Positions 4,310-63,707 of a DNA stretch of 64,000 bases are shown one piece after another (positions within the stretch are counted from its first letter, which is position 1; every line of letters begins with the position of its first letter). The position numbers and the translations under genes are program-made. A model generated the notes under the pieces. It saw only the letters and a program-made list of their open reading frames with translations, searched no databases and was not told the origin of the DNA. The stretch spans positions 20,530 through 84,529 of the forward strand of contig JBBTUV010000004.1 of the NCBI GenBank assembly GCA_038063535.1, in the 5' to 3' direction. The stretch comes from Patescibacteria group bacterium (GTDB lineage: Bacteria; Patescibacteriota; Minisyncoccia; Phycocordibacterales; UBA9973).

Positions 4310-4341
4310 AATATTCTTTTTTCGATCTACATTCTTCTCCG

Positions 4342-4416
4342 TGGAGGCCTAGGTGGGAATCGCACCCACGTATAAGAGTTTTGCAGACTCTTGCCTTACT
4401 ACTTGGCGACTAGGCC
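4342..4416 (-). tRNA. tRNA-Cys (anticodon GCA), CCA encoded
   Basis: The acceptor is GGCCTAG/CTAGGCC, the anticodon stem-loop is AGAGT-CTGCAAA-ACTCT and the T-arm is GTGGGTGCGATTCCCAC. It is the only tRNA in the cluster with a genomically encoded CCA. Confidence 0.8.
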
Positions 4417-4435
4417 ATAAGGAAATTATATCTTA

Positions 4436-4714
4436 TTATTTTTCAATTTCGATTTCAACAAAGGGAACGTTTTTCACCTGCATGTTAGCTTTGAGGTAAT
4501 CGCGCAAGTCACTCCGCTTGCGCCTTGCGAACTCCAGTGCTTCAAGGGCTTGCTCTTCCGGAAGCACGCTTATGTAAACAGTCGCGTTCCGGAGATCCGA
4601 GGACACGTCGGCCCTGGTTACGGTGATGAGCGAGACGGAATTATTCTCGCGCTCGAGGAACACGGCCGCAAGCTCTTTCACCAGGTTCGCCGCTTTTTCA
4701 TCTCGTCTGCCCAT
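4436..4714 (-). CDS. rbfA: Ribosome-binding factor A
   Basis: 92 aa. It matches the RbfA family by eye and sits downstream of infB in the conserved infB-rbfA arrangement. Confidence 0.85.
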   Translation of the reverse strand: MGRRDEKAANLVKELAAVFLERENNSVSLITVTRADVSSDLRNATVYISVLPEEQALEALEFARRKRSDLRDYLKANMQVKNVPFVEIEIEK

Positions 4715-4724
4715 GATTTTTGGT

Positions 4725-6203: not shown

Positions 6204-6640
6204 AGTGCTTCTTTTTCCTCTTCGGTAAGTTCGTATTCGGATTTTCCACCCTTCACCGGCTTGGCAAAGACGCTCATTCTCTCCCTGGCATAAAGGGAAG
6301 AAAGCACCACTCCGTCGCCGCCCTCGTCAACCATTCCGATGGCAAAACTCTGGTTCGAGCCCTGGTCCGGAAATGGATTGAAGCGCACCGTCTCAAGGCC
6401 GCGGATGCTCCCGGCGAGTTTCTTGTTCATCACCGCGATCTCGGCCCCTGATTTTTCGTTTGCCGATTTCAAACTCAAAATGTCGCTGGAGAGTTTCTCA
6501 ATGGTCTCCTCGAGGTCCTTTCCCTTTTTCCCGAGGAAGAACTTTTTCAGGCGCTTCTCGGTGCGGAATAGCCAAAAGAGTTCGACAAGAATTACGAGCC
6601 CGGCCAAAACAAAAAAAGCCATCTCAAGCTTGGTGTTCAT
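6176..6640 (-). CDS. Hypothetical membrane-anchored protein
   Basis: 154 aa with an N-terminal TM helix followed by a coiled-coil/charged region. It overlaps the infB start by 28 nt. No confident family assignment. Confidence 0.5.
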   Translation of the reverse strand: MNTKLEMAFFVLAGLVILVELFWLFRTEKRLKKFFLGKKGKDLEETIEKLSSDILSLKSANEKSGAEIAVMNKKLAGSIRGLETVRFNPFPDQGSNQSFAIGMVDEGGDGVVLSSLYARERMSVFAKPVKGGKSEYELTEEEKEALWKAKKKTE

Positions 6641-6664
6641 GATTTTTCAATATATACTATTTCG

Positions 6665-7753
6665 GTGCGAAAATCAAAGGAAATCTATTTAGATTATGCT
6701 TCAGGTACTGAGCCGAACCCGAGCGCAATACACGAGCTTGGCGTCGGAGAGAAAAAAAAGCTCGAGGTAGCGCGCGAGTGCATTGCGCGAGTTTTTAGAG
6801 CGAGAGCGAGCGAAATAATTTTCACCTCTGGAGGCACCGAGAGCAATAATTTGGCCATTCTTGGGATGCCGAGAGGGCATGTTGTCACCACCAACATAGA
6901 ACATGCTTCAGTGCTCGAAGCTGCAAAGCAGAGGGGCAAGGTGACATTCGTTCCCGTCGAAAAAAATGGCATCGTCGACCCCCGAAAAATCCGAGACGCA
7001 CTTCGGGGTGATACGGTGCTCGTCTCGGTTATGTATGCAAACAACGAGATCGGAACTATCCAACCTATCCGAGAAATTGCAAAAGAGATCCGGCACTGGA
7101 ATAAAAATCACAGCAAAAAAATATATTTCCACACGGACGCAGTCCAGGCGGTGAATTATTTGCCCATCAATGTTGAGAAGCTCGGCGTGGATTTGATGAG
7201 CCTGAATGCTGCAAAAATTTACGGCCCGAAAGGGGTCGGTGCGCTTTACGTCCGGCAGGGTACACCGCTTCACCCGATTATGTTCGGCGGCAATCAGGAA
7301 GGGAAGCTTCGCCCAGGGACGGAAAATGTCGCCGGCGCTGAGGCACTTGCCGAAGCGCTCGAAGAAACAGAAAGAATAAAAGAAAGGGAGATAAAACGCC
7401 TCACCAAACTCCGAGATTATTTTCTCCACCAATTGGCACGGTTTGATTTTGTCGTAAACGGCGACTTGGAAGCAAGGCTTCCAAACAACGTGAATGTCTC
7501 GGTGACCAAAATCCCAAGCGATCTTTTGGTGATTGAACTCTCCGCGCGAGGGATCATGGTTTCCGGCAAGAGTGCCTGCAAATCAGGCGACGAGAAAGCT
7601 TCGCACGTACTTAGAGCGATTCGCGGGCGCGTGGCCGAGAGCGAGGGGTCCTTGCGATTTTCCCTAGGGCGGGGGACGACAAAAAAGGATATCGAGCGGA
7701 CAGTCCAGGTGCTCGCCCAGATATTTGCAAAGCTAGAAAAGTGGTATCATTAA
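6665..7753 (+). CDS. Cysteine desulfurase (class V aminotransferase, IscS/NifS-like), GTG start
   Basis: The fold-type I PLP enzyme signatures are present, including the PLP-lysine region SLNAAKIYGPKGVGALY and a C-terminal active-site Cys loop (SGKSAC). Confidence 0.85.
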   Translation: MRKSKEIYLDYASGTEPNPSAIHELGVGEKKKLEVARECIARVFRARASEIIFTSGGTESNNLAILGMPRGHVVTTNIEHASVLEAAKQRGKVTFVPVEKNGIVDPRKIRDALRGDTVLVSVMYANNEIGTIQPIREIAKEIRHWNKNHSKKIYFHTDAVQAVNYLPINVEKLGVDLMSLNAAKIYGPKGVGALYVRQGTPLHPIMFGGNQEGKLRPGTENVAGAEALAEALEETERIKEREIKRLTKLRDYFLHQLARFDFVVNGDLEARLPNNVNVSVTKIPSDLLVIELSARGIMVSGKSACKSGDEKASHVLRAIRGRVAESEGSLRFSLGRGTTKKDIERTVQVLAQIFAKLEKWYH

Positions 7754-7756
7754 GAA

Positions 7757-8176
7757 ATGCACGGCGAGGAGAATGTTATCAAGAAGTTTCATCCTCATCC
7801 TCTGTTTTATCTTGGCTTTTACCTTGGCGGGCCCATTCTCTCCGGGGTGGGATATTATTTCTTCACTCCGCTCGCATGGGCGGGACCCCTCATTATAATT
7901 CTTGGAGAACTCCTCCGCCGCGCGGAGACATACTATGTGACCGAAGATGGCGTGGTCCACGAATTTCATTTTCTCGCCACTCGTAGAGTTTCCGCTGAGT
8001 ATCGGAGGATACAAAACATCGAGGTCACTCAGTCGTTCTTGGAGAATTTGCTGGGGGTGGGGAATATTCACTTCGATACTGCTGGCGCCGACAGGACCGA
8101 AGTTAATTTCCGCGGGGTAAAGAATCCATACCGCATTGAAAAGATCGTCCGCGAAAGAATTGCCAGCTCAGCTTAA
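7757..8176 (+). CDS. Bacterial PH-domain (bPH_2/YdbS-like) membrane protein
   Basis: 139 aa. Two N-terminal TM helices are followed by a YYVTEDGV...NIEVTQSFLENLLGVGNIHFDTAG motif typical of the bPH_2 family. Confidence 0.7.
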   Translation: MHGEENVIKKFHPHPLFYLGFYLGGPILSGVGYYFFTPLAWAGPLIIILGELLRRAETYYVTEDGVVHEFHFLATRRVSAEYRRIQNIEVTQSFLENLLGVGNIHFDTAGADRTEVNFRGVKNPYRIEKIVRERIASSA

Positions 8177-8191
8177 ATTTTGTGCTATAAT
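8160..8191 (+). promoter_or_regulatory. Putative promoter (TTGCCA ... TGcTATAAT) giving a leaderless start for the next gene
   Basis: The extended -10 TGCTATAAT ends 6 nt before the ATG at 8198, and the -35-like TTGCCA lies 20 nt upstream of the -10 hexamer (long spacer). Confidence 0.35.
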
Positions 8192-8197
8192 GCGCTT

Positions 8198-8965
8198 ATG
8201 GACATCAAGGACCTGAATAAATCACAGCTCATTCTGCTTACCCTTTTACTTTCCTTCATCACCTCGATCGCAACCGGGATCACTACGGTCACGCTTCTTC
8301 GGGAACCTCCATCAGCCACAACTACTCCGATCAGCCGGGTGATCCGGCAGACCGTGGAGAGAATCGAACAAGTGCAGGGCAAGACCGTGACCGAGACGAT
8401 TGTCGTCAAAGAAGAAGATCTGGTGGTGGACACGATCGCGAACAATCAGTCCGCGGTTTTCTCCGTTTCTAAGGAGGGATTTAACGAGCTCGGAGCTCAA
8501 GCAGAAGTTTCCGCCGGCCGCGGGTTTGCGGTGACTCCCGAGGGAATTGTCGTCGTTGATTCTGCCCAAGTGTTCGAAGGAGGGACGTATTATCTTACGA
8601 ACGCTAGCGGAAAATTCCATGCCGCATTCCTTGCAGCAAATAACGCGGGTTTCAGCCTGCTTGAACTCGGGGCGCCATTTGAGGAAGGAGTAAAGGCAAC
8701 CTTCAGCGTTCCCGTCGCCGGCGATCTCTCTGCGATGAAGCCCGGGCAGAAGGTCATAATCTTGGGTGAGACGATCACTTCTTTCATTCTTGACAGCAAC
8801 CAGAACATGAAGATAAATACCAGCAAGTCAAATGCCGGAGGATTGGTTCTCAATCTTGACGGCCAAGCGCTCGGCATTGCGCTTACAAGCGAGACCGCAT
8901 CCTTTGCTCCAATTTCGGCGATAGACGAGGCAGTCAAGGCTCTTGCCCCTCCCCCAAATCCCTAA
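8198..8965 (+). CDS. Membrane-anchored trypsin-fold (HtrA/S1C-like) protein with catalytic residues apparently substituted
   Basis: There is an N-terminal TM helix. The S1 fold motifs are recognisable ([46 protein letters not shown]) but the GNSGGP serine is Ala and the His-box reads VDSAQV. Confidence 0.55.
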
Positions 8966-9009
8966 AAAAGCTTTACAAATTGAAATTTATAGTATATAAT
9001 GGCCCGAAA

Positions 9010-11700
9010 ATGCCTCCCCTTAACCGTTTTACAACCAAAGCGAAAGACGCGATCAAGAAAGCTCACGAGCTGGCGATAGAGCGCGGCCAAAACCACGTCT
9101 CTTCGCTTCATCTCTTGGCAGCGCTCTTGCTCCAGGAAGAGAGCATGGTGAACTCGATTCTCGACAAGATCGAGGTGGATACGATGTTGCTTACCGACAA
9201 CGTGCTTGAGGCGATCGAACTCCCAGAAACCCGCAGCACACTCTCGCCTTCCTATCAGATATATTTGAACCCTGACCTCGCGCAAGTGATCGAGGCAAGC
9301 GCGAAGCTCGCTGAATATCTCAAAGACGATTTTGTTTCGACCGAGCACCTTTTCATCGCGATGCTCGAGGTTCCCGGGGAGGCGAAGGAAACTCTCTCCC
9401 GTCACCGTATCGGCAAAGATGGGGTCATGAAGGTGCTTGAGGAACTTCGCCGCGAGAATGTTACTGATGTCTCTGAGCCGAAACGCTTCCGCCTGCTTTT
9501 AAAATACACCCGCAACCTTACCAAACTTGCGAAAGAAGACAAGCTTGACCCGGTGATCGGCCGCGAAAACGAGATCAGCCGGATCATGCAGATCCTTTCC
9601 CGCCGGACGAAGAACAACCCGATTCTAATCGGAGAAGCCGGCACCGGGAAGACCGCGGTGGTAGAAGGTTTGGCTCAGCGGATCTCGAAAAACAGCGTTC
9701 CGGAGTCGCTACGGGATAAGGAACTTGTTTCTCTTGACCTTGGCTCTTTGATCGCCGGCACGAAGTACCGCGGCGAATTCGAGGAGAGGCTCAAGGGCAT
9801 AATGAAAGAGATCGAACGCGCGGAAGGGAAGGTCATTCTTTTTATCGATGAGATTCACACGATTGTCGGCGCCGGAGGCGCGGAGGGGACACTCGATGCC
9901 TCAAACATGCTCAAACCCGCACTCTCGCGCGGAGAGCTTCGCGCGATCGGGGCGACAACTCTGAAAGAATACCAGCGACACATCGAAAAGGATCCCGCGC
10001 TCGCGCGGCGTTTCCAGCCGGTCTACATCGATGAGCCTTCAGTTGAGGACGCGATTGCGATCCTTCGCGGCCTCAAAGAAAAATATGAGCTGTTTCATGG
10101 AGTCCGTATCACCGATGATAGTATCCTCGCGGCGGTAAATCTCTCCGCGCGTTACATCACCAACCGATTCCTGCCGGACAAAGCGGTGGACTTGATCGAC
10201 GAAGCATCTTCCTCTCTGAAAATTGCGCTCGAGAACAAACCCCCGGTGCTTGAAGACGCCCACCAGCGGATCATGCGTCTGGAGATAGAAAAGGAGGCAC
10301 TGAAAAAAGAAACCGAGAATAAAGAAGCCAGGAAGCGTATAAAGGAGATCGACAAGGAGATCGGAAACCTGAACGAAAAAACAAAAGAGCTCGAGCTCAA
10401 GTGGCAGAACGAGCGCAGGGCGGTGATCGAGATCCGTTCGATCAAGAAGGACCTCGAGACGATGCGCCTGGAGGCCGAGAACGCGGAGGCCCGGGCGGAC
10501 CTCGCGCGCGCAGCAGAGATCCGCTACGGAAAGATCCCGGAAGCGAAGAAAGAACTGGAGACGAAACTTACACGCTTGAAAAAACTGCAAAAGTCGCGCC
10601 GCATCCTCAAAGAAGAAATTACCGCCGAGGATATTGCCGAAGTTGTTTCTCGCTGGACCGGGATACCGCTTACCAAGATGCTGGAGGAAGAGCGGGCGAA
10701 ACTCGAACGGATGGAGGAGGAACTCCGGAAGCGCGTGGTTGGCCAAGATGAGGCGATCAAGCGGGTGGCGGATGTTATTCGCCGCTCCCGCGCGGGCATT
10801 TCCGATCCCTCGCGGCCGATCGGCTCGTTCATATTCTTGGGGCCGACCGGTGTTGGGAAAACAGAGCTTACCAAAGCGCTCGGGCAGTTCATGTTCAACT
10901 CTGACTTAGCCGTCATTCGCGTGGATATGAGTGAGTACATGGAGCGACATAGCATTTCGAAATTAATTGGCTCGCCCCCAGGCTATGTCGGATACGAAGA
11001 AGCGGGTCAGCTGACCGAAGCGGTGCGGCACCGGCCGTATGCAGTTGTCCTTTTCGACGAAGTGGAGAAGGCGCATCCGGAAGTTTTCAATATGCTCCTT
11101 CAGGTGATCGACGAGGGCAGGCTCACCGACGGCAAAGGCCGGGTGGTCAATTTCAAGAACACCATTATTATTCTCACTTCGAACATCGGTTCGCAATTCG
11201 TTGAGAAAATGGAATCGATCGGGTTTTCCAATAATTCGGATATGCAGGATTACGGCCGAACCAAGGAGAAAGTGCTCGAGGCATTGAAGGACCACTTCCG
11301 CCCGGAATTCTTAAACCGACTAGACGAGATCATTGTCTTCGATATTCTCTCGCCTGCGGCGATCAGGGAGATCGTGGATCTGCGCGTTCAAGTGGTGAAA
11401 GACAGGCTCGAGGGCAAAGGCATCGCTTTCAAAATTTCGGAGGAAGCGCTCCTCTTCCTGGCGCAGGCTGGCTATGACCCGCATTACGGCGCGCGGCCCT
11501 TGAATCGCCTGATCCAGAACAAGATATTAAATCCTGTCGCCACTCATATCATCTCAAACGAAGTAAAGAAAGGGGACACGGTAGTGGTTTCCGCTAAAGC
11601 GGGCGAGCTCGTCATCCAAACTCAAAAAGGCGGCCCCGCCAAAGGACGGGCAGGTAGCGTTAAAAGCCCGATCCGCGTCCAGCCGAAATCTTCAGCCTAG
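9010..11700 (+). CDS. clpB: ATP-dependent chaperone ClpB (AAA+; two NBDs, middle coiled-coil domain)
   Basis: It has a Clp N domain, Walker A motifs GEAGTGKT and GPTGVGKT, an M-domain coiled coil, and a short basic C-terminal extension. The start is set at MPPLNRFT; the ORF extends 30 nt further upstream. Confidence 0.95.
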
Positions 11701-11943
11701 AACGTACACCTCCGAGCCTTCTGGAGACTTCTGGGAGAGCTTGACCGCAACCTCTTGGCCCTTCTTACCTGCTTTTATCACCTGATGATCAAGCTGTATT
11801 GACTCCACGGTGTCTTCAAATTCTTGCTCACCGTGCCTGACCATAACTTTGTCTCCCACCCCCAAAGCACCGGAGAGTTTGATTACCCCGACGCTTATTT
11901 TGTCGTACCAGTGGACGACTTTTCCAACCAATTTTTCCGCCAT
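11692..11943 (-). CDS. Small beta-barrel protein (EF-Tu domain-2-like / translation-factor-like small protein)
   Basis: 83 aa with a G-x-V pattern typical of translation-factor beta-barrels. It overlaps the 3' end of clpB convergently by 9 nt. Confidence 0.45.
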
Positions 11944-12011
11944 ATTTTTATCGACGTTTAACTACGACCTTTTTTATAGACTATTACAAACTGCCCAATA
12001 AGTCCAATTTG

Positions 12012-12094
12012 TGCGCCGGGAGGGATTCGAACCCCCGTAGCCCGAAGGCGATTGGTTTACAGCCAATTGCAATTGACCACTCTGCCACCGACGC
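12012..12094 (-). tRNA. tRNA-Tyr (anticodon GTA), long variable arm
   Basis: The acceptor is GCGTCGG/CCGGCGC, the anticodon stem-loop is ATTGG-CTGTAAA-CCAAT, the variable arm is CGCCTTCGGGCTAC and the T-arm is GGGGGTTCGAATCCCTC. Confidence 0.85.
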
Positions 12095-12170
12095 ATGCCT
12101 ATAAAATAACACAAAAAAACCCTTCGCGCATCTTTTTTGTTGTTATTTCTGTAAAATATGTTATTATTTC

Positions 12171-12192
12171 AAAAAGCCCCCGGGCTTTTTTT
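12171..12192. other. A-tract/GC-stem/T-tract hairpin immediately upstream of the typA start codon
   Basis: AAAAAGCCCCCGGGCTTTTTTT ends 2 nt before the ATG at 12195, giving a terminator-like palindrome with flanking A and T runs. Confidence 0.35.
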
Positions 12193-12194
12193 AT

Positions 12195-14006
12195 ATGGAA
12201 ATTAGAAATATAGCTATAATCGCCCATGTGGACCATGGCAAGACCACTCTAACCGATGCTCTAATGAAGCAAAATGGAATACTCTTGGATGAGGGAGTGT
12301 CTATGGACTCAAACGCTCTGGAAAAAGAGCGCGGTATTACTATATATTCCAAAAACACATCAATCTATTACAAGGGTACAAAGATAAACATCGTAGATAC
12401 TCCTGGCCACGCGGATTTCGGAAGCGAAGTGGAACGCGTTTTGCGAGCCATTGATTCGGTACTTCTTTTAGTGGACGCCGTTGAAGGTCCCATGCCTCAA
12501 ACCAGGTTCGTTCTGAAAAAATCTTTAGAGCTGGGACTCCAGCCGATTGTGGTTATAAATAAGATAGACAAGTCAGCTTCAGATCCGCACCGAGTGCACG
12601 ATGAAATTCTGGGATTGTTTTTTGAACTGGGTGCTTCTGAAGAGCAAGCAAATTTTGAGACGATTTATGCTATTGGGCGAGAGGGGAAAGCCTTTAAAAA
12701 TCTTGGTGATACGTCGGCAGACCTGTCTCCACTGCTAGACTTGATTCTAGAAAAAGTTCCACCAGCTTCAAAGAAAGAAAATGAAAAGATGTCGGCACAG
12801 GTTTTCAACTTAGCTTATGACAATTTCCTAGGCAGAATGGCAGTCGCGCGAATTTATTCGGGTCAAATGAAATCCCCCGCCGCTGTTTTTGTGAAGGGCG
12901 AGAAGGGAAGTCGTGCAGGTAAGATCACGAAACTTTTTACCTTCGAGGGAATAAGCAGGAAAGAAGTCGAGAAAGCTTTATCGGGCGACATAGTGCTCTT
13001 GGCTGGTATTCCAGACATATATATCGGTGAGACCATTTGTGAAGATGAAACGGTAGAGGAAATGCCACACATTGCTATCGACGAGCCGACGCTCTCACTC
13101 AATTTTTTGGTTAACGACTCTCCATTTGCTGGTCGGGAAGGAAAGTTTGTAACTTCAAGACAGCTTAAAGAAAGATTAGAAAAAGAACTTGAGATAAATG
13201 TCGGTCTTAGAATCAATTTTTCACCGGATCAGGGTGAAAAAATGGGGCCGAGCTTTTTTAAAGTTTACGGTCGCGGTGAATTACACATTGCTATCCTTCT
13301 CGAAAATATGCGACGCGAAGGATTTGAAATGCAGGTTTCGGAACCAGAAGTAATTATCAAAGAGAATGATGGCGAGCTTGTCGAACCATATGAAGAACTA
13401 GTTATTGACGTACCTGTAGAATCAAGCGGAAGCGTTATTGAAAAAATTGGCAAGCGTAGAGGCATCATGAAAGACATGGTAGAGAAAGAGGGCATAGCTC
13501 GAGTTATTTTTGATATCCCAACTCGCGGACTTCTGGGGTATCGTAGTGAGTTTATCATCGACACCAAAGGGGAAGGTATCATGTCTTCTCGTGTCACTGG
13601 CTTTCGAAAGTACGCAGGGGATATAAATAAGCGCGAATTCGGCTCGATGGTTTCGATGGTGTCCGGCAAGGCAGTCACCTTCTCCCTTGCAAATTTACAA
13701 GAACGTGGTATTATGTATATCGAGCACGGAGCCGAGGTATATGAGGGCATGGTCATAGGGAACGTGTTAAAAGGGGAGGATATGTCAGTAAACCCTACCA
13801 AAGGCAAGCAGCTTACCAACATGCGTGCTTCCGGTACCGATGAGGCTTTGTTTTTAAAGCCTGCTTTTACTTTAAACATAGAAAGGGGCCTAGAAGTTAT
13901 GAATAGAGAAGAATATCTCGAAATCACTCCCGAGTCCGTGAGACTTCGCAAAAAGTACCTCACCGAACTAGATCGGACAAGGCAGGGGAGGCAAAGCAAG
14001 AGATAG
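12195..14006 (+). CDS. typA: Translational GTPase TypA/BipA
   Basis: [11 protein letters not shown] and DTPGHADF are present and the architecture is EF-G-like. 603 aa. Confidence 0.95.
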
Positions 14007-14011
14007 TAGAT

Positions 14012-14039
14012 TTGACACTGGGCCGGCATTGTGTATAAT
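14012..14039 (+). promoter_or_regulatory. Consensus sigma-70-type promoter (TTGACA-16 nt-TATAAT)
   Basis: Both hexamers are perfect with a 16-nt spacer, 25 nt upstream of the ATG at 14064. Confidence 0.6.
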
Positions 14040-14063
14040 TAAGGGGTAGACTTTCTCAAATTT

Positions 14064-15095
14064 ATGGCAAAGGTATCCTTCAAACCCAAGCAAGTCACCA
14101 AAAGAATCACTTCCCATCTTCATGACCGAGCGAACGATGTTATCATGAGCCGCTTCGGTCTCACTCCGGACGCGGTCCGGAAGACTCTCGAGGAGATCGG
14201 CAAGCGTTACAACATTACCCGCGAGCGAGTCCGTCAGATCGAAGACGCGGCCATCGCGCTTATCAAAAAGTCCGAAGCCTACAAACGGGAACAGGTAGCC
14301 TTCGATGAACTCAAAGAGCTGATCGTCTCACTCGGTTCGATCGTCGCCGAGCACGAGTTGCTTTCGCACATAAGCGATGATAAAGCGACCCAGAACCATA
14401 TTCATTTTTATCTTGTCTTGGGCGATACTTTCAAAAAACATCGTGAGGACGAGCATTTTCATGCGCGTTGGAGCGTGAACGACGCGGTGGCGGAGAAAGT
14501 ACACGACGCACTGAAGCGTCTTTATGCCTCCCTCTCGGACGAAGATCTTGTCCCGGAGTCTGAGATGATTAAAAGATTCCTCGAGCATTTGAAGGACGCC
14601 TCGGATCATTATCGGGACGAGGAGATTGCCCGCAGATGGCTGCGTATCTCAAAGACCATCAAGAAGAATCCCTTGGGCGACTGGGGCAAGGCGAGCTCTC
14701 CGAACGTCCACACTCGTGGCGTGAAAGATTACGCGTTCCTGGTGATGCGCAAGCACGGCTCGCCGATGCATTTCCGGGAAGTTGCCGACGCGATCTCGAA
14801 AACTTTCGGGAAGAAGACTCACTACGCCACTTGCCACAACGAACTGATCAAAGACCCGCGCTTCGTCTTGGTGGGGCGGGGGATCTATGCGCTCGCCGAG
14901 TGGGGCTACAAGCCCGGCATCGCTCGCGAAGTCATCAGGGATATCCTCAAGCGCGAAGGTCCGATGAACAAGGACGACGTCATCGAGCGGGTGATGAAAG
15001 AGCGCTACTTCAAGAAAAATACTATTCTCGTCAACCTGGTGAACCCGAAGTATTTCAAGAAAAACAAGAACGGCCTCTATTCGCTCGCCGCATAG
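14064..15095 (+). CDS. DNA-binding protein with an N-terminal sigma-70 region 4 HTH and a C-terminal HARE-HTH-like winged helix
   Basis: The N-terminus has the sigma region 4.2 signature (LEEIGKRYNITRERVRQIEDAAIALIKK). The C-terminal ~90 aa resemble the RpoE-delta N-terminal HARE-HTH (FREVADAISKTF...GRGIYALAEWGY). There are no sigma regions 2 or 3. Confidence 0.65.
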   Translation: MAKVSFKPKQVTKRITSHLHDRANDVIMSRFGLTPDAVRKTLEEIGKRYNITRERVRQIEDAAIALIKKSEAYKREQVAFDELKELIVSLGSIVAEHELLSHISDDKATQNHIHFYLVLGDTFKKHREDEHFHARWSVNDAVAEKVHDALKRLYASLSDEDLVPESEMIKRFLEHLKDASDHYRDEEIARRWLRISKTIKKNPLGDWGKASSPNVHTRGVKDYAFLVMRKHGSPMHFREVADAISKTFGKKTHYATCHNELIKDPRFVLVGRGIYALAEWGYKPGIAREVIRDILKREGPMNKDDVIERVMKERYFKKNTILVNLVNPKYFKKNKNGLYSLAA

Positions 15096-15107
15096 TAAAA
15101 TATAGAA

Positions 15108-15284
15108 ATGCCCATTTTCCCCATAGTTTTCATGCTCTTCGTCCTCCCGTTCCTGATCATCCAGGAGGGGTATAAGATGCTCAAGGGTGCTCTCTCCCGC
15201 CCGGGTTTCGCCAGGAATTTTCTCTATATTTTGGTGCTCTTGCTTGCGCTAGTCGGCATCTCTCTCTTTCTCGCCGGCTTCTAG
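15108..15284 (+). CDS. Possible small two-helix membrane protein (58 aa, below the ORF-track cutoff)
   Basis: This is an ATG-initiated ORF (MPIFPIVFMLFVLPFLIIQEGYKMLKGALSRPGFARNFLYILVLLLALVGISLFLAGF) in the gap between two plus-strand genes. Confidence 0.3.
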   Translation: MPIFPIVFMLFVLPFLIIQEGYKMLKGALSRPGFARNFLYILVLLLALVGISLFLAGF

Positions 15285-15313
15285 ATTTCCTCTTTTTATA
15301 CTAAAATATAGGC

Positions 15314-16666
15314 ATGGACGAGCTTTTTGATTTCCTCGAGCATCATCTCCCCAAGATCCTCCTGGTCGTTATCGTCGCATTCCTTGCCTGGGTGCTTTTC
15401 CGAGCCGAACTTCTTTTTCCGCTTCTGGGTACGATTATCCTCGGCTGGATCGGCTGGAAGGTATGGGTGCATTACGTCCAGCAAGACTTCATCTCCGGCA
15501 TCGAGTGGGTGCTCCTTGAGATAGTGCCACCGCGGGAGGTCATGCGCTCTCCGAAAGCGATGGAGCTTTTTATCACCAACGCTCTCTATCACCTTTCTTT
15601 CAAAGGGGGCAAAGAAGAGTTCTGGCAGGGCGCGGTCTGGTTCTGGCATTCGCTCGAGATCGCTTCGATCGAGGGGCAGGTGCATTTTTATGTCCGCAGT
15701 CCGTCGCGCCTCCGGGGCCTCATTGAAACACAGTTGTACGCGCAGTACCCCCAGGCGCAGGTGCGGGTGGCGGAAGATTACACGCTCGCCGTGCCGGAAA
15801 TTTCCCAAAATAGTGAATGGAACGGCTGGGGTTGTGAATTCAATCTTGTAAAAAGCGAGGCTTACCCGATCAAGACCTACACCGATTTCGGTTTGGACAA
15901 AGATCCCAAAGAAGAATACAAAGTGGACCCGATCTCTCCGGTGATCGAGTTCTTCGGCGCACTCGGCAAGAATGAGCAGGCGTGGCTCCAGTTTGTGATC
16001 AAGCCCGCGGGAGCCACCGGCGGCACGAAACATAAACGGGATTGGGTGAACCAGGCGAACGACACCATGAAAGATTTGCTCCGGCCCTACACTCGTACGC
16101 AAAGAGGCATAGAAGAGGGAGAAACTGCACTCGAGATCCGCGCGCCGAAATTCTACGACAACGTTATCACCGCTATGAACATGAAGACAGGCAAGCTCGG
16201 TTTCGAAACGGGCATCCGGCTCGTCTACGTGGCCAAGAAAGAACACTTCAGCATGAACAATCGCCGCGACATCCGTCTTATTTTCCGCCAATACGCCAAG
16301 CCCGATTGCAACGAGCTCCTGCGCATAAATTCCGCGCAGGCGGACCGCTACAGCGGCGTCTTTTCCGCCTCGCCGAAGACCGTCATGATGCTCGCAAACA
16401 GGATGGTGCATGAATTCCGCGACCGGGCATTCTTTCACCTCCCACTCCGGCACCACATTTTCTCCCAAAAGTATTGGAGCTGGCCCTTTCCGACGTTTAT
16501 CTCCATAGACGGCATCATCAAGGCTTACATTCATCACCATACCTTTATCCTGAACACCGAAGAGCTCGCGACCCTCTGGCATTTCCCGGGCCAGATCCTG
16601 AAAGTCCCGTCCCTCGAGCGCATCGAATCGAAAGAAGCTTCTCCGCCTCCAAACTTGCCGACATGA
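15314..16666 (+). CDS. Hypothetical membrane protein (two N-terminal TM helices plus a ~390-aa soluble domain), family not recognised
   Basis: 450 aa with credible TM helices and protein-like composition. The antisense 462-aa ORF has Arg/His-rich shadow composition. Its stop overlaps the mltG start (ATGA). Confidence 0.65.
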   Translation: MDELFDFLEHHLPKILLVVIVAFLAWVLFRAELLFPLLGTIILGWIGWKVWVHYVQQDFISGIEWVLLEIVPPREVMRSPKAMELFITNALYHLSFKGGKEEFWQGAVWFWHSLEIASIEGQVHFYVRSPSRLRGLIETQLYAQYPQAQVRVAEDYTLAVPEISQNSEWNGWGCEFNLVKSEAYPIKTYTDFGLDKDPKEEYKVDPISPVIEFFGALGKNEQAWLQFVIKPAGATGGTKHKRDWVNQANDTMKDLLRPYTRTQRGIEEGETALEIRAPKFYDNVITAMNMKTGKLGFETGIRLVYVAKKEHFSMNNRRDIRLIFRQYAKPDCNELLRINSAQADRYSGVFSASPKTVMMLANRMVHEFRDRAFFHLPLRHHIFSQKYWSWPFPTFISIDGIIKAYIHHHTFILNTEELATLWHFPGQILKVPSLERIESKEASPPPNLPT

Positions 16667-17544
16667 TTTTTTACCAGAAAGCATTTCCGCTTGCGCTCGG
16701 CGCTGTTTTACTCATCGCGGGCGTGAATTATTTTCTCATCTCTCCGCCCGGCGATTTTCCGGAGGGGCGCATTGTTTCTCTCGAGCAGGGGATGAGCCTG
16801 CGAGCCGTATCGGCCAAGCTCAAAGAGGAAAATTTTATCCGCTCGCGAGTGGCGTTCGAAGCGTTCGTCATCATCTACGCCGGTGAGCGGCATGCCGTCG
16901 CGGCCGATTACTATTTCGAAAAGAAACTGCCGGCTTTTGAAGTTGCGCGCCGGGTCGCATTCGGCAAAAGCGCTCTGGCGCCGATCCGCTTCACCATCCC
17001 CGAGGGCTTCACCAACCAAGAGATCGCCGCCTCCGCCGCGCGCCTGCTCCCGAACTTCGTTCCGGAAATATTTCTCAAGGACGCGAGCGACAAAGAGGGT
17101 TACCTTTTTCCCGACACTTATTTTTTTATTTTCCGCGCAAGTTCGGAGGACGTGCTCGGGGCTCTGGAGAAAAATTATGAGAAGAAAATAGTACCGCTCC
17201 GGCCGGAGATTGCTGAATCCGGGAAAAGTGAAGACTCGATAATCACCATGGCCTCGCTCATCGAGCGCGAGGCCAAAGGCCTCGAGCGCGCTGTAATCTC
17301 GGGAATTTTGTGGAAACGCCTTGCGCTCGGCCGAGCGCTCGAGGTTGATGCTGCGCCGGACACTTACCAAAAGCGGGGTTTGCCGGAAGCCCCCATAGCC
17401 AACCCCGGCCTAGCTTCGATCAAAGCGGCCATCCACCCCGAGAACTCGCCCTATCTTTACTACCTGCACGACTCGGAAGGCAATATTCATTACGCCCGCA
17501 CTTTCGAGGAGCACAAGAAGAATAAAGCGCTGTATTTAAAATAA
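16663..17544 (+). CDS. mltG: Endolytic murein transglycosylase MltG/YceG family
   Basis: There is an N-terminal TM helix and a YceG-like domain (DTYFF, LASIIEREA-like motif SLIEREAKG). The start is set at MIFYQKAF. Confidence 0.85.
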   Translation: MIFYQKAFPLALGAVLLIAGVNYFLISPPGDFPEGRIVSLEQGMSLRAVSAKLKEENFIRSRVAFEAFVIIYAGERHAVAADYYFEKKLPAFEVARRVAFGKSALAPIRFTIPEGFTNQEIAASAARLLPNFVPEIFLKDASDKEGYLFPDTYFFIFRASSEDVLGALEKNYEKKIVPLRPEIAESGKSEDSIITMASLIEREAKGLERAVISGILWKRLALGRALEVDAAPDTYQKRGLPEAPIANPGLASIKAAIHPENSPYLYYLHDSEGNIHYARTFEEHKKNKALYLK

Positions 17545-58776: not shown

Positions 58777-59481
58777 ATGGAAACGGCATACAAGGTGAAG
58801 ACCCGGGTATTTGAAGGGCCTTTCGGTCTACTTCTCGACCTGGTGGAGAAGAGAAAGCTTTTCATCAACGATGTCTCGCTTGCGGAAGTGACCGAAGACT
58901 ACCTGGCCTATGTAAAGACCGCGCCACCCGCGGAAATTTCGAGTTTCATCGTCGTCGCGGCCACGCTCATCCTCATTAAATCAAAGTCGCTCCTGCCGTC
59001 ACTTGATCTCTCGAGCGAGGAAGAGGGAGACATCCGAAGTCTCGAGGAGCGCCTACGGCTCTACGAACTTTTTCGCCGGCTCTCGGCCGGGGTGAAGAAA
59101 AGATTCGGGCAGGATATGATCTTTCACGCCGAAGAAAGAAAAAACGAAATGGTGGTATTCTTGCCCGATGAGCAGATCACCCGGGAGCGCATGATGGAGC
59201 TTGCGCGAGGCGTGATCGGCGCGATGCCGAAAGTTACAGCGCTTCCGGAAGTGCCGGTAAAAAAAATAGTGACGATCGAGGAGATGATAAAACGGCTCAC
59301 TGAGCGGATAGAAAAATCGATAAAAGTGAGCTTCAGAGATTTTACCCGCGGAGGCAAGGGGAAAGAAGGGAAAATCAGCACAATCGTGGGGTTCCTGGCG
59401 ATGCTCGAGCTCGTGCGGCAAGGACTGCTTCGTGCGGAGCAGGAGGGAAATTTTGAAGAGATAATGATAGAAAAAGCATGA
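58777..59481 (+). CDS. scpA: Segregation and condensation protein A
   Basis: ScpA family. It starts 1 nt after the pepA stop and overlaps scpB by 4 nt. Confidence 0.85.
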   Translation: METAYKVKTRVFEGPFGLLLDLVEKRKLFINDVSLAEVTEDYLAYVKTAPPAEISSFIVVAATLILIKSKSLLPSLDLSSEEEGDIRSLEERLRLYELFRRLSAGVKKRFGQDMIFHAEERKNEMVVFLPDEQITRERMMELARGVIGAMPKVTALPEVPVKKIVTIEEMIKRLTERIEKSIKVSFRDFTRGGKGKEGKISTIVGFLAMLELVRQGLLRAEQEGNFEEIMIEKA

Positions 59482-60026
59482 CCCTGGAAACTAAACTAGA
59501 AGCGATATTGTTCTTTAAAAATGAACCGCTCTCGATTAAAAAATTGGCGGAGATCTTGAAGGCTAAGGAAGGGGAAGTCAAAGATGCGATCTTCAATCTT
59601 AAACGGAATCTCGAGGGAAGGGGGATAGTCTTACAGGAGAAAGATGACGAGATCTCTCTCGGAACCGCCCGGGAGTATTCGGCCCTTATTGAAAATTTAC
59701 AAAAAGAGGAACTCTCCAAGGAGCTTTCGAAGGCATCACTTGAGGCGCTCTCCATCGTACTTTACAAAGGGGGAGCGAACCGCGCCGAGATCGACTATAT
59801 CCGAGGGGTTAATTCGAGCTTTACCTTGCGAGCGCTCTCGGTGCGAGGGCTCGTCGAGCGGATAACCGATCCCAGAGACGCTCGACGTTTCTTCTACCGG
59901 CCGAGTTTTGGTCTCTTGTCGTACCTCGGAATAAAATCAATCGAAGAGCTTCCAGAATTCGCTGAAGTGAACAAGGAACTTCTTGGCGCGGAGGAACAGG
60001 CGAAAGAGGCAGGAAAGGATGAATGA
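59478..60026 (+). CDS. scpB: Segregation and condensation protein B
   Basis: ScpB with tandem winged helices. 182 aa. Confidence 0.85.
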   Translation: MTLETKLEAILFFKNEPLSIKKLAEILKAKEGEVKDAIFNLKRNLEGRGIVLQEKDDEISLGTAREYSALIENLQKEELSKELSKASLEALSIVLYKGGANRAEIDYIRGVNSSFTLRALSVRGLVERITDPRDARRFFYRPSFGLLSYLGIKSIEELPEFAEVNKELLGAEEQAKEAGKDE

Positions 60027-60888
60027 TGATGCGGACAATCGTTTTCTCGTTTTTCTTTTGGCGTTTTTTCTTCTCGTAGCAGGATTGTTCTCAGCGGGCA
60101 ATTTCAAATCAAACGGAATAATTCGTTTGGAGGACATCCAAGCGATGCAAGCTGAAAGATCCCTTGCCGGGCTCGCACTCGAAGCAAAAGCAGTTTCGGT
60201 TTACGATTTCACCGCGAATAAAAAAATTTACGGGGGGGGCGACGAGCTGCCGCTTGCGATGGCGTCGCTTGCAAAGTCGATGACGGTTACGCTTGCGCTC
60301 AATGTTTTGGGTGAGGATGGTGCGGTACGCATTTCCAAAGAAGCGGTTTCTCAATCGGGGGATTTCGGGCTTACGGTCGGCGAGAGCTGGCGAGCGGGGG
60401 AGCTTGCGAAGCTTACCCTTATCGCTTCCGCGAACGACGGCGCTTATGCTCTGGCAGAGGCAGCCGGAGGAAATTTCTTGGATAAGATGAATGAGAAAAC
60501 GCGGAAAATAGGCATGGAGCACGCGGTCTTTCTCTCCGTGACCGGACTCGATGAATTGGAAGAGGGCGTCCCGGTCCTTGCCAGCGGGTTCGCATCAGCC
60601 TCAGACTTGAACACTCTCGCGTATTACGCCCTCCGCTCGCATCCGGAAGTTTTTACGGCTACAACCTCCGAAGGAGCCTATGGTTTTCAGAATACCAACC
60701 CCGCCGCGGGGAAAATCCCGAATCTTCTTTTTTCCAAAACCGGCTTCACTGATCTCGCCGGCGGGAACCTCTCGATAATTTTTAAAAATCGCGACGAGCA
60801 CATTATCGCCGTCACGATCCTCGGCTCCAGCTACGAGGGACGATTTTCCGACATGGAAAAGATCGTGAGCGTGTTGTATAGTGAGTAA
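59983..60888 (+). CDS. D-alanyl-D-alanine carboxypeptidase (S11, PBP5/6-like)
   Basis: There is a signal anchor and the motifs SLAK (SxxK), SAN (SxN) and KTG (KTGFT). Confidence 0.85.
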   Translation: MARRNRRKRQERMNDDADNRFLVFLLAFFLLVAGLFSAGNFKSNGIIRLEDIQAMQAERSLAGLALEAKAVSVYDFTANKKIYGGGDELPLAMASLAKSMTVTLALNVLGEDGAVRISKEAVSQSGDFGLTVGESWRAGELAKLTLIASANDGAYALAEAAGGNFLDKMNEKTRKIGMEHAVFLSVTGLDELEEGVPVLASGFASASDLNTLAYYALRSHPEVFTATTSEGAYGFQNTNPAAGKIPNLLFSKTGFTDLAGGNLSIIFKNRDEHIIAVTILGSSYEGRFSDMEKIVSVLYSE

Positions 60889-60890
60889 AT

Positions 60891-62627
60891 ATGGAGGCAC
60901 AAACTAGAAAGTGCCAGAATTGTAAGCACGACTTCACTATCGAGCCCAACGATTTCGGTTTCTATGAAAAAATAAAAGTTCCCCCGCCGACATTTTGCCC
61001 TGATTGCCGAAGGCAAAGGCGTTGGGCTTGGAGAAACAATGTTTCGCTTTACAATCGCAAGTGCAATCTCTGTGAAAAATCTGTTATCTCGATCTATGCG
61101 CCTGATTCAGGGCTTACTATTTATTGCAATAAATGCTGGTGGAGCGACAAATGGGATCCGAAATCCTACGGCGTTGACTATGATTTTTCTAAACCTTTTT
61201 TCACGCAATTTCGAGAACTTTTACAAAAAGTTCCGCAAATGGCAATTGTAAATGACGACGGAATTGCATCGCTCAATTGCGAATACACGCATGATTGGTG
61301 GTTTTCTAAAAATTGCTACATGTGTATCTCGGGGTGGCACACAGAAAATACTATGTATAGTCACTTTATACTTGCAGGCAAAAATATGGTGGATTGTAAT
61401 ATTATTCGATCAGAGAGCGAATGGCTTTATGAATGTTTTATGTGTTCACATTGTTATCAAGTTAAAAACTCTGAATACAATCTTGCGTGCATAGATTCAC
61501 AATTCATTTTTGACTGCAGGGATTGCTCAAATTGTTTTATGTCATATGGGCTTCGTGGAAAAAAATATCATTTTAAAAATAAACTTTATTCTAAAGAACA
61601 GTACGAAGAGATTATAAAAAATTATAATTTAGATACTTGGGTTGGGGTTGAACAAGCTCAAAAAGAATTTGATTTATTTCTTCTTTCTTATCCTCGCAGA
61701 TTTACTCAAATTTTTCAGAGTCTCAACTGCACGGGCAACCTCATTTCTCAAGCAAAAAACTCAAAAAATTGCTTTATAGTAAAAAACGCAGAAAATTGCA
61801 GCTATTGTGATTATGTGGGAGACACTACAAAAACCACAAAGGATTGCTATGACCTTACGACCTCGGGGGGCTTGTCAGAAAGTTATGAGGGAATGGTTTT
61901 GGATCATTCCCAGCTAAATCTATTTGGAGTTTTTTCGGTCAAAAGCCAAGATATTCAATATACCCAGCATTGCCACAATGTGAAGCACGCGATTGGTTGC
62001 GTGGGGGTTCGGAGTTCAAATTATTGCATTTTCAATAAGCAATACACAAAAGAGGAGTATCAGAGACTTTTACCGAAAATTATAGAGCACATGAATGAGA
62101 TGCCATACACAGATAAGCAGGGGATAGAATATAAATATGGCGAATTTTACCCGATTGAACATTCGCCGTTTGGTTATAGCGAAACATTTGCACAAACACT
62201 TGTGCCATTAAAAAGAGAGGAAGCGCTAAAGAGGGGATACAAGTGGCAGGATAATATCCAGCGCACGACAGGGAAGGAAACTTTGAAGCCTAAGGATATT
62301 CCCGAATCAATCAATGACGTGAAAGACGATATATTAGAAGAAGTACTCGCCTGCATCGATTGCGGAAGAAATTACAAAATTGTCGTGAACGAACTCAATT
62401 TTTACCGAAAAATGAACATCCCGATCCCGCGCCGCTGTTTTCACTGCCGGCACGCCACGCGCCTGGCGCGGCAGAACCCGCTCAAGCTCTGGCACCGGCA
62501 GTGTATGTGCACCCTAGAAACTCATGACCACAGGGATAAATGCCCAAATGAATTTGAGACCAGCTACGCACCCGACCGACCAGAGATGGTTTACTGCGAA
62601 AAGTGCTACCAGAAGGAGGTATATTAA
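60891..62627 (+). CDS. Cys-rich repeat protein with homologous N- and C-terminal double zinc-ribbon modules; AT-rich
   Basis: 578 aa. The N-terminal (CQNC...FYEKIKVPPPTFCPDCRRQRRWAWRN...YAPD...YCNKC) and C-terminal (CIDC...FYRKMNIPIPRRCFHCRHATRLARQN...YAPD...YCEKC) modules align. The centre has about 20-aa Cys-containing repeats. GC is about 35 percent. Confidence 0.7.
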   Translation: MEAQTRKCQNCKHDFTIEPNDFGFYEKIKVPPPTFCPDCRRQRRWAWRNNVSLYNRKCNLCEKSVISIYAPDSGLTIYCNKCWWSDKWDPKSYGVDYDFSKPFFTQFRELLQKVPQMAIVNDDGIASLNCEYTHDWWFSKNCYMCISGWHTENTMYSHFILAGKNMVDCNIIRSESEWLYECFMCSHCYQVKNSEYNLACIDSQFIFDCRDCSNCFMSYGLRGKKYHFKNKLYSKEQYEEIIKNYNLDTWVGVEQAQKEFDLFLLSYPRRFTQIFQSLNCTGNLISQAKNSKNCFIVKNAENCSYCDYVGDTTKTTKDCYDLTTSGGLSESYEGMVLDHSQLNLFGVFSVKSQDIQYTQHCHNVKHAIGCVGVRSSNYCIFNKQYTKEEYQRLLPKIIEHMNEMPYTDKQGIEYKYGEFYPIEHSPFGYSETFAQTLVPLKREEALKRGYKWQDNIQRTTGKETLKPKDIPESINDVKDDILEEVLACIDCGRNYKIVVNELNFYRKMNIPIPRRCFHCRHATRLARQNPLKLWHRQCMCTLETHDHRDKCPNEFETSYAPDRPEMVYCEKCYQKEVY

Positions 62628-62651: not shown

Positions 62652-63707
62652 ATGGATTTCATGAACCTGGTGAAGATATTTTTGCCTACGGCGGTGGCGT
62701 TCTTTCTAGGCCTCGCCTTTACGCCGATTGCGACACATTTTTTCTACAAATACAAGATGTGGAAAAAATACTCCAGGAACGGCGCGGTAGATGCGCCGGA
62801 TTTTCCCAGGATTCACGACGAGGTGAGGGAACTCAACACTCCGCGCATCGGAGGCATAATCGTCTGGACCTCGGCGCTCCTCACCACTTGCCTTTTTTCT
62901 TCGATTGCCGTACTTTGGCCTAATCCAGTCACCGAGAAGCTCAATTTTCTCTCACGTAGCCAGACCCTCATCCCATATTTTACCCTCCTTCTGGGGGCGA
63001 TGCTTGGCCTCTGGGAAGACCTGGCGCAGATCTATGGCGATGGGAAACTTGCCCGGGACGATTCCTCTTGGCGCAAATGGAAGGTGTTGCTTGTTTTTAT
63101 TCTCGCCCTTCTGGTCGGGGTCTGGTTTTTCTATAAGCTCGAGCTCACCGGATTTCACATTCCCTGGGGCGGTGAAATCGAGCTAGGTCTTTTGATCATC
63201 CCGTTTTTCGTATTGGTCGCGCTCTTCACTTGGTCTGGGTCCGTGATCGACGGCATCGACGGCCTCGGGGGCGGGGTGCTCGCATCCATCTTCGGTGCAT
63301 ACTCGGCGATTGCCTTTGCCAACAATCAGATCGATCTGGCCGCTTTCTCCGGAGTTATCACCGGGGCGCTTCTCGCATTCCTTTGGTTCAATATCCCGCC
63401 GGCGCGCTTCTATATGGGGGAGACGGGCATGATGGGGCTTACCATCACCCTGGCCACGCTCGCGTTCCTGACCGACTCGGTGCTCATCCTTCCGATCGTA
63501 TCTTTTGTTCTGGTGATTACGTCGCTTTCGGTGATCCTTCAGTTTTTTTCAAAAAAGTTCCGCGGCAAGAGGTTGTTTCGGCTGGCGCCACTCCATCACC
63601 ACTTCGAGGCGATCGGTTGGCCGCCGTACAAAGTGACAATGCGTTTCTGGGTGCTCTCTGTCGTTTTTGCGATTATCGGCATAATCTTAGCCATAATCAG
63701 CCGATAA
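62652..63707 (+). CDS. mraY: Phospho-N-acetylmuramoyl-pentapeptide transferase (MraY; GT4 family, WecA-like not excluded)
   Basis: There are 10 TM helices and the motif DGIDGLGGG. 351 aa. Confidence 0.8.
   Translation: MDFMNLVKIFLPTAVAFFLGLAFTPIATHFFYKYKMWKKYSRNGAVDAPDFPRIHDEVRELNTPRIGGIIVWTSALLTTCLFSSIAVLWPNPVTEKLNFLSRSQTLIPYFTLLLGAMLGLWEDLAQIYGDGKLARDDSSWRKWKVLLVFILALLVGVWFFYKLELTGFHIPWGGEIELGLLIIPFFVLVALFTWSGSVIDGIDGLGGGVLASIFGAYSAIAFANNQIDLAAFSGVITGALLAFLWFNIPPARFYMGETGMMGLTITLATLAFLTDSVLILPIVSFVLVITSLSVILQFFSKKFRGKRLFRLAPLHHHFEAIGWPPYKVTMRFWVLSVVFAIIGIILAIISR

Follow-up and report, generated by a model that had tools for sequence, protein, structure and literature searches.

Parts of the protein considered here resemble two described families of small zinc fingers. 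The protein is the product of a gene that we call X, located at positions 60891 to 62627 of a 64-kb stretch of DNA from a Patescibacteria group bacterium (contig JBBTUV010000004.1 of assembly GCA_038063535.1; this whole stretch is called the window hereafter). Members of the first family, zf_Tbcl (PF13451), described in Pfam as a probable treble clef domain, are typically small or single-domain proteins, none of them with a defined function. The second family, the CxxC-x17-CxxC domain, occurs in Methanosarcina mazei as stand-alone fingers of ~40-60 aa, and has been shown to bind zinc in the purified small proteins by inductively coupled plasma mass spectrometry (PMC12704099). A further described system that bears on this gene is that of the VirD4-type coupling proteins of type IV secretion systems (T4CP and T4SS, respectively). 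A survey published in 2025 identified 5,713 VirD4-type T4CP homologues in 2,918 Patescibacteria genomes, ~two per genome, 148 of which lie near virB4 (PMC12102498). One such homologue is dispensable in 'Ca. Southlakia epibionticum', where the T4SS genes are essential, and the authors could not exclude exaptation; more generally, T4SS are widespread in Patescibacteria and are thought to serve functions other than conjugation (PMC12102498). The family described below is not mentioned in that survey, from which the words 'zinc' and 'hypothetical' are absent and where 'cysteine' is used only for the VirB1 peptidase domain.

We found that X is the single 'core' orthologue of a multigene family that extends throughout the Patescibacteria. 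Its product very probably consists of a double Cys4 module at each end with, in between, two duplicated solenoids made of 12-residue coils, a helical hairpin, and an alpha/beta domain. Treble-clef fingers and beta-solenoids are known folds, and the novelty resides in the family and in its partnership: with respect to Pfam, NCBIfam, PADLOC, PHROGs, the PDB and the literature, the X family and its association with orphan T4CP-like ATPases fall outside any described kind. We tentatively propose that X is a zinc-stabilised cytoplasmic scaffold or adaptor rather than an enzyme, which would cooperate with VirD4/TraD-like ATPases (probability roughly 0.4).

X is a complete gene on the forward strand (60891..62627) that codes for 578 aa plus a stop, in agreement with the earlier note on this DNA. 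The homology that the note had seen between the two terminal modules is strongly supported: the N-module (residues 1-95) aligns to the C-module (479-578) with a Smith-Waterman score of 136 versus 28.3 +/- 4.9 for 500 shuffles (z = 21.8), and the sequence motifs that it quoted are present in X. The protein contains 36 cysteines (6.2%) and not the ~50 reported earlier, and 16 of these 36 make up four CxxC...CxxC sites in the end modules. All 16 are invariant or nearly so among X orthologues, and in a divergent alignment of 148 sequences they display Cys frequencies of 0.58-0.99, the lowest being those of C61, C79 and C82.

Each module comprises two fingers. Finger 1 of the N-module (60891..61040, +; aa 1-50) contains C8-x2-C11 and C36-x2-C39 within the motif FYEK..VP.PT.CP.CRRQRR and is of the zf_Tbcl type, while finger 2 (61041..61175, +; aa 51-95), with C58-x2-C61-x17-C79-x2-C82, is of the zf_Tbcl_2 / TIGR04272 type. 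In the C-module, finger 1 (62331..62486, +; aa 481-532) contains C488-x2-C491 and C516-x2-C519 and gives a weak PF13451 match. Finger 2 (62487..62624, +; aa 533-578; C538 ... C551-x17-C569-x2-C572) has its first knuckle opened by a variable 12-residue insert containing His (C540, H545, H547). The two copies of finger 1 share the motif FY.K..(V/I)P.P..C..CR..R and are basic, with a net charge of +4 in the N-module and +6 in the C-module (family means +2.0 and +6.3). The PF13451 pattern is present twice, as C8xxC11-x24-C36xxC39 and C488xxC491-x24-C516xxC519, together with FYEK or FYRK and CRRQRR or CRHATR, and is conserved across alignments A1-A4. The spacing of the CxxC-x17-CxxC domain is exact in N-terminal finger 2 (C58-N-L-C61, 17 residues, C79-N-K-C82); the C-terminal copy differs by its opened knuckle and keeps C551-x17-C569xxC572. 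Scores are low: PF13451 reaches 14.4 bits (E = 0.037) on window X and 23.1 bits on the best family member tested, under a gathering cut-off of 24, TIGR04272 gives 9 bits (E = 1.1) on window X against a cut-off of 36, and PF23477 attains at most 19.3 bits in family members against a cut-off of 27. Matches to PF13451 and PF23477 recur, one per half of each end module, and are sub-threshold in window X. Precomputed PF13451 matches are recorded for many distant relatives, some of which are named 'zinc-ribbon domain containing protein' by NCBI. Because window X lies under the Pfam cut-off and the matches of its relatives are on record, its membership of zf_Tbcl is by transitive homology. On pattern and transitive homology, then, we assign the fingers of X to the zf_Tbcl and CxxC-x17-CxxC families, and the protein is predicted most likely to bind four zinc ions.

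Phage proteins annotated as 'putative zinc-ribbon domain' in BFVD superpose with finger 1 of X over ~41-43 residues at 0.5-0.8 A, with 32-37% identity. However, whereas zf_Tbcl proteins are small, in X the finger is paired, is present twice, and caps a solenoid body of ~390 residues, and the stand-alone fingers of M. mazei are likewise unlike X. A more remote comparison is the LIM domain, also a tandem two-finger zinc module, and one that is used for protein docking. However, the X module has ~75 aa and four CxxC pairs versus ~55 aa and a C2HC-C4 arrangement in LIM, X has no Pfam LIM match, and in a search with the family profile C-module finger 2 matches an avian CRP LIM domain with a non-significant E value of 0.21.

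Concerning the middle of the protein, the earlier note had proposed about ten repeats of ~20 aa forming a beta-solenoid with a Cys or metal ladder. The repetitive character and the solenoid stand, while the unit, the number and much of the ladder do not. The family profile has a period of 3 with autocorrelation maxima at lags 12 and 24, and writing the sequence in rows of 12 brings out two blocks, aa ~127-234 and aa ~277-386, each of about nine coils that follow the motif x-[KE]-[ND]-C-h-[YD]. A conserved linker helix (61176..61250, +; aa 96-120; DYDFS.PFF.QF.EL...VP) leads from the N-module to beta-solenoid A (61251..61586, +; aa 121-232; ~9 coils of 12 residues), which opens with a loop that is invariant and specific to the orthologues, VNDDGIAS (aa 120-127), and ends with C209-x2-C212-x2-C215 followed by the cap LR.K.Y.F.N..YSKE.Y. 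After a helical hairpin (61587..61694, +; aa 233-268) comes beta-solenoid B (61695..62045, +; aa 269-385; again ~9 coils of 12 residues), whose cap, FGC.G.R...YCI.NKQY.KEEY, matches that of A (aa 374-397 against 222-245). Since one and the same cap, (F)GC.GLR.K.Y.I.NKQYSKEEY with a helix after it, closes both blocks, solenoid B represents an internal duplicate of A. A long helix and a small alpha/beta domain (62046..62330, +; aa 386-480; YGEF(F/Y)P.E.SPFGYNE..A, W452) then lead to the C-module. CxxCxxC runs are present in the X solenoid, and the Cys 'ladder' is only partly conserved in X and more regular in the family consensus; among the 148 aligned, more divergent family members, Cys frequency is 0.2-0.5 at many solenoid positions.

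Structure prediction gave the same picture, with a beta-solenoid between the end modules. AlphaFold2 run with 120 orthologues yielded a mean predicted local distance difference test score (pLDDT) of 83.5 and a predicted template modelling score (pTM) of 0.85, and with 123 more diverse sequences values of 88.0 and 0.89, all five models lying at 84-88. The fingers, the helices and the alpha/beta domain (aa 405-480) exceed 90, the C-terminal finger has 90-96, and solenoid B ranges from 67 to 93; DSSP assigns short strands roughly every 12 residues of the model. We found neither the periods of 6/18 or 5/20 nor a DUF583 hidden Markov model (HMM) match that would mark a left-handed beta-helix (LbH), pentapeptide-repeat or bactofilin protein. 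The combination of 12-residue coils, paired-Cys intracoil disulfides, a TCT face and secretion known from Tenebrio molitor antifreeze protein was not found either. That protein (PDB 1ezg, a beta-helix of 12-residue coils), the curli subunit CsgA (8c50) and LbH acyltransferases are generic solenoid comparisons for X, and we found no solved structure that resembles it beyond this generic likeness; PDB searches by sequence and by family profile returned only non-significant LIM matches. No signal peptide or membrane segment could be identified in X (maximum Kyte-Doolittle 19-mer 0.86). This lack of a hydrophobic segment, along with the predicted Cys4 zinc sites, argues for a soluble, cytoplasmic protein.

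The family to which X belongs is large. A word-indexed sequence search with X gave >6,180 matches; the 120 best, all of full length and with 63-87% identity, are annotated as 'hypothetical protein' of Nomurabacteria, Paceibacterota or Patescibacteria; under that name, family sequences are abundant in databases. An exhaustive search of 50%-identity representatives retrieved 3,706 clusters at E <= 1e-3, of which 1,455 remain at E <= 1e-30; most are 540-600 aa long with the same architecture from end to end. All source names on family matches are Patescibacteria, and no relatives were found on viral contigs. When a member with 36% identity served as the query of a second search, matches extended to Falkow-, Magasanik-, Uhr-, Peregrini-, Peri-, Gracili-, Abawaca- and Brennerbacteria. 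The range across classes includes Paceibacteria/Nomurabacteria, Falkow-, Magasanik- and Uhrbacteria of ABY1, and also Peregrini-, Gracili- and Abawacabacteria. X and divergent members were compared with Pfam (2025 copy), NCBIfam, PADLOC and PHROGs; no match was significant, and the only ones seen were sub-threshold zinc-finger matches and a weak match to phrog_15341 (unknown function; E = 3e-4). For the central ~390 residues, none of these four collections holds a matching family of known function, and in the searchable literature on cysteine-rich, beta-helix or zinc families of the candidate phyla radiation (CPR) we found no paper that describes the family.

To examine genomic context we used 80 genome loci retrieved with two orthologue-specific peptide patterns (VNDDGIAS and CNKCWWS), a sample in which close relatives are over-represented. 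A family HMM recovered 203 members in 87 loci. The window orthologue group, defined at 50% identity, accounts for 88 sequences in 80 loci and occurs in the slot between scpB and mraY as well as within arrays; all further copies belong to 44 other clusters. Arrays are same-strand tandem series with ~1.7 kb spacing, comprising 10 copies in locus L086 (1-17686), eight in L014 and L038 (the latter at 1050-16173), and seven in L040, L081 (933-13661) and L082. The complete genome of a Peregrinibacteria member (L088, 2919-17451) harbours at least eight copies in 17 kb, including truncated copies and copies that have lost finger-1 Cys. Among paralogues, the end modules are best conserved and the solenoids and hairpin least. 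In L088, finger-1 Cys are replaced in some paralogues (e.g. C..S, CPEE), truncated copies include one of 263 aa ending after solenoid A and one of 497 aa without finger 1, and the affected or truncated copies lie at 2919-4568, 13359-15017, 16660-17451 and 11866-13359; the same region also contains HicAB, PIN and transposase genes.

Outside the family, the gene most often found in the neighbourhood encodes a P-loop ATPase of 460-1,027 aa (24 loci, 39 genes). These proteins match T4SS-DNA_transf, DUF87/HerA and TrwB_AAD_bind in Pfam and TraD (E = 7e-15), VirD4-like and CedD in NCBIfam, while that of Peregrinibacteria has DUF8128 and TraG-D_C; some of the ATPases have an N-terminal DUF8128. Against single-copy loci and the literature average as a baseline, the ATPases are enriched: 26 genes were counted in 428 kb of array loci versus 5 in 435 kb of single-copy loci. 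All 39 lie on the same strand as the nearest X-family gene, 18 of them within 300 nt; examples beside arrays are L037 14651-17008, L044 10200-12635, L040 13227-16307 and L088 17464-19707. A CxxC-x17-CxxC finger is present in 19 of 40 ATPases, and when a profile of X finger 2 was run against 1,086 non-family ORFs (open reading frames) of related loci, only this TIGR04272 finger of the ATPases was retrieved (E down to 1.3e-6); it scores 53 bits itself, against a cut-off of 36. Thirteen ATPases end in a conserved PEEVLRKILE-like tail that follows a long low-complexity region rich in Pro, Lys and Glu. They share finger 2 with X and correspond to the orphan VirD4-type T4CP homologues of the survey (PMC12102498), being neighbours or partners of X and not its relatives. 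Unlike canonical VirD4/TraD, the array-associated ATPases do not have an N-terminal membrane anchor: a membrane-like segment was found in 0 of 40. Adjacency to coupling-protein homologues is seen for paralogues and for some orthologues in other genomes, but not for the window copy.

Same-strand arrays of up to 10 paralogues beside VirD4/TraD-like ATPases in several CPR classes, with end modules better conserved than the rest, recall Bartonella, where bep effector genes adjoin virD4. X proteins might by analogy be Bep-like effectors of a type IV-like pathway, delivered to the hosts of these episymbionts, and the wide occurrence of T4SS in Patescibacteria with suspected non-conjugation functions would fit (PMC12102498). 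We consider this quite improbable, as the ATPases have no membrane anchor, T4CP genes are rarely near virB4 (148/5,713), and one of them is dispensable though the T4SS is essential (PMC12102498). Moreover, the C-terminus of X is a confidently folded Cys4 finger and not a disordered, charged secretion tail, and the rate of evolution of the core copy is as low as that of FtsW and MurG, unlike what is typical of effectors. A tightly folded, zinc-stabilised solenoid would also be a poor T4SS substrate.

A second recurrent context involves chaperones. In six loci (L014, L018, L028, L068, L082 and L085) we observed the order PaaX_M-type winged helix-turn-helix gene (on the minus strand)/dnaK/X/ATPase/X/X/ATPase/dnaJ. 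This, the 6.2% Cys content and the CxxCxxC runs could indicate a thiol or metal stress protein that works with DnaK/DnaJ as a holdase, as an Fe-S carrier or as a buffer of zinc or redox state, and DnaJ and Hsp33 are precedents for Cys4-zinc chaperones. However, the dnaK context is lineage-limited and absent from the window, the solenoid Cys are mostly unconserved across the family (0.22-0.5 at many positions), no ferredoxin, Fe-S or metallothionein family match was found, and the strict 550-600 aa architecture favours a specific structure over a buffer, which makes such a role very unlikely. A metallothionein or Fe-S carrier as such was rejected on the poor conservation of the solenoid Cys. 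Regulators of another kind accompany some arrays: a TrmB-family gene lies divergently upstream of the array in Peregrinibacteria (L088) and in a second distant contig, where the array is also beside an unannotated ORF of 704 aa.

The window copy itself lies in a same-strand, operon-like run. Upstream are scpA (58777-59481, +), scpB (59478-60026, +) and a Peptidase_S11 D-Ala-D-Ala carboxypeptidase (59983-60888, +), and downstream is mraY (Glycos_transf_4; 62652-63707, +), as the earlier note had recognised when it placed X between a PBP5-like carboxypeptidase and mraY. X starts 3 nt past the S11 stop codon, and its end is separated from mraY by 24 nt; it is co-oriented and tightly packed with scpAB and dacA-mraY-ftsW-murG. 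Contigs with an identical X protein have the order scpA-scpB-S11-X-mraY-ftsW-murG-gltX-M23 peptidase, which is also that of relatives, at times with a VanY peptidase in place of S11. All five markers (scpB, X, mraY, ftsW, murG) are kept in 23 loci and the order is partial in ~35 of 80, with intergenic gaps of 2-24 nt. In the 23 loci, median identity to the window proteins is 71.8% for MraY, 66.7% for ScpB, 66.0% for X, 65.2% for MurG, 64.7% for FtsW and 57.2% for GluRS. X is vertically inherited, and its rate of evolution is that of a housekeeping gene, as low as those of FtsW and MurG. This synteny is limited to one clade (Nomurabacteria/Paceibacteria relatives); elsewhere the same orthologue cluster is found downstream of dnaK, by dnaJ or VirD4-like ATPases, in arrays, or beside tRNA-modification genes.

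The conserved order scpA-scpB-(S11 or VanY)-X-mraY-ftsW-murG with its 2-24 nt gaps, and the housekeeping-like conservation, might point to a cytoskeleton-like or division/segregation scaffold, analogous to the beta-helix polymers of bactofilins, that would act together with ScpAB and MraY-FtsW-MurG on the cytoplasmic side. This would be the cell-envelope role that the earlier note considered plausible, moved into the cytoplasm. Filaments can form by stacking of beta-solenoids, and septal DNA translocases are among the members of the FtsK/HerA superfamily, to which the associated ATPases belong. Nonetheless we regard this as unlikely: the synteny holds in one clade only, with orthologues elsewhere by dnaK, in arrays or by tRNA-modification genes, Pfam gives no match to bactofilin or to another family of cytoskeletal proteins, and up to 10 paralogues per locus would be unusual for a structural division protein.

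We return to the proposed scaffold or adaptor. The basic fingers of X would dock onto nucleic acid or an acidic partner, the solenoid surface would provide specificity, and X would work with the soluble 'orphan' VirD4/TraD-like (FtsK/HerA-superfamily) ATPases. The core copy may link an ATP-driven step of DNA or protein handling to chromosome segregation and division, and the paralogue arrays may represent diversified versions of the same adaptor. As applied to the window copy, the ATPase partnership is possible but doubtful. It is rather unlikely, though conceivable, that X and its paralogues are the missing partners of thousands of orphan soluble ATPases in a CPR-specific, ATP-driven cytoplasmic machine, where a hexameric FtsK/HerA-type motor would receive DNA or protein cargo chosen by the zinc-finger-capped solenoid adaptors, and the arrays would constitute a specificity repertoire.

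Several observations weigh against the scaffold or adaptor. In solenoid A the confidence of the model is no higher than 60-79. The partnership is carried over from paralogues, and from orthologues in other genomes, because the window copy has only scpAB and cell-wall neighbours, and neighbourhoods in small streamlined genomes can persist without functional coupling. Zinc at every site is not obligatory for the fold, since some paralogues have lost finger-1 Cys. Finally, the orthologue-invariant VNDDGIAS, DHSQ and HCH could mark a catalytic or ligand site and not a passive scaffold. X would then be an enzyme with its active site on the solenoid (DDGIAS loop, D168, D321, D338-H339-S340, H360-C361-H362) and zinc modules for stability or docking, which we hold to be quite unlikely.

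The base composition of X had led to the suggestion of a laterally acquired gene, with 35% GC in a 55% background. The actual values are 40.3% for X, 49.6% for the window and 47-53% for flanking genes, so that the contrast was overstated. GC reaches a sliding-window minimum of ~31% at 61400-61800, and most of the 'AT-rich' signal comes from codons 151-350 (61341..61940, +), a tract where GC at third codon positions (GC3) is 0.20-0.40 versus 0.54-0.68 in neighbouring genes. Per 50 codons, GC3 of X is.50,.46,.40,.24,.20,.26,.40,.44,.36,.50,.72 and.59. The same central dip occurs in three sister genomes of intermediate GC (L006-L008), to which codons 151-350 are 0.48-0.76 identical versus 0.74-0.96 at the gene ends. 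When the tract is divided into four 50-residue blocks, orthologues from low-GC genomes outrank the sisters, which come only 5th-16th, in all blocks but 201-250, where the top match is a sister; between the sisters themselves, divergence here is just as large. Nonsynonymous divergence (dN) is 0.28-0.38 in the tract versus 0.06-0.11 at the ends, about fourfold, and synonymous divergence (dS) is saturated, so that selection is not readable. The central tract is thus phylogenetically incongruent, whereas at the ends of X GC3 is like that of the host (0.50-0.72) and the closest sequences are those of the true sister genomes. Two explanations are compatible with this pattern: segmental exchange, with AT-rich paralogues or other lineages as donors in gene conversion, and evolution that is locally relaxed or diversifying. 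A diversity-generating retroelement is not indicated, because no template-like repeat, that is no second copy of any part of X, is present in the window (longest chance match 16-18 nt).

These data bear on the idea of a recently acquired AT-rich island gene. The 40% versus 50% local GC, and the best matches of codons 151-350 to low-GC genomes with GC3 down to 0.20, speak for it. However, X occupies the same position in relatives, including the mid-GC L006-L008 that share the dip, its ends have host-like GC3 and are closest to true sisters, no mobile-element genes flank it, and its composition is typical in low-GC relatives, where the gene has 37-43% GC and the flanks 34-42%, i.e. typical or slightly high. 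The earlier note had said that a common family with typical composition in relatives would speak against its proposal. That is what the searches and the comparison with relatives revealed (>6,180 matches, 3,706 clusters, syntenic), and the island idea therefore falls; we rate it extremely unlikely. Transfer of the whole gene was rejected on shared synteny, absent mobility genes and typical composition in relatives, and at most an internal segment of X could have been exchanged. The features of an AT-rich insert are largely ordinary, and the interest lies in the family.

As to the remainder of the window, X is single copy there, with no second copy or paralogue found, nor any ATPase, dnaK or dnaJ gene. 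We could not identify mobility genes flanking X, and a promoter and terminator scan around it gave counts no higher than chance expectation. An M17 aminopeptidase and other genes lie farther upstream than scpA and scpB. The longest ORF of the S11 carboxypeptidase has a TTG start at 59983 and a 44-nt overlap with the end of scpB (59983-60026); its true start is probably downstream, because identical-locus contigs call a gene 12 codons shorter (289 aa). A search of the 64 kb with Rfam detected tRNAs only, namely a cluster of five (Leu-CAG, Leu-TAG, Lys-CTT, Leu-TAA, Cys-GCA) at 3977-4416 (-) and a separate tRNA-Tyr at 12011-12094 (-). The GC content of ~50% is high for the clade, most recovered relatives having 34-42%. 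The nearest named genome is 'Candidatus Nomurabacteria bacterium RIFCSPLOWO2_01_FULL_46_18' (L008), where X is 77% identical and the synteny is the same.

Patescibacteria represent a large share of bacterial diversity, with genomes of ~1 Mb in which most lineage-specific proteins have no known role. The X family is as conserved as cell-division enzymes and occurs across CPR classes, and arrays of at least 15 kb in some genomes are a large coding investment at ~1 Mb. Its link to the ATPases provides a testable handle on why ~two coupling-protein homologues per genome sit away from any T4SS.

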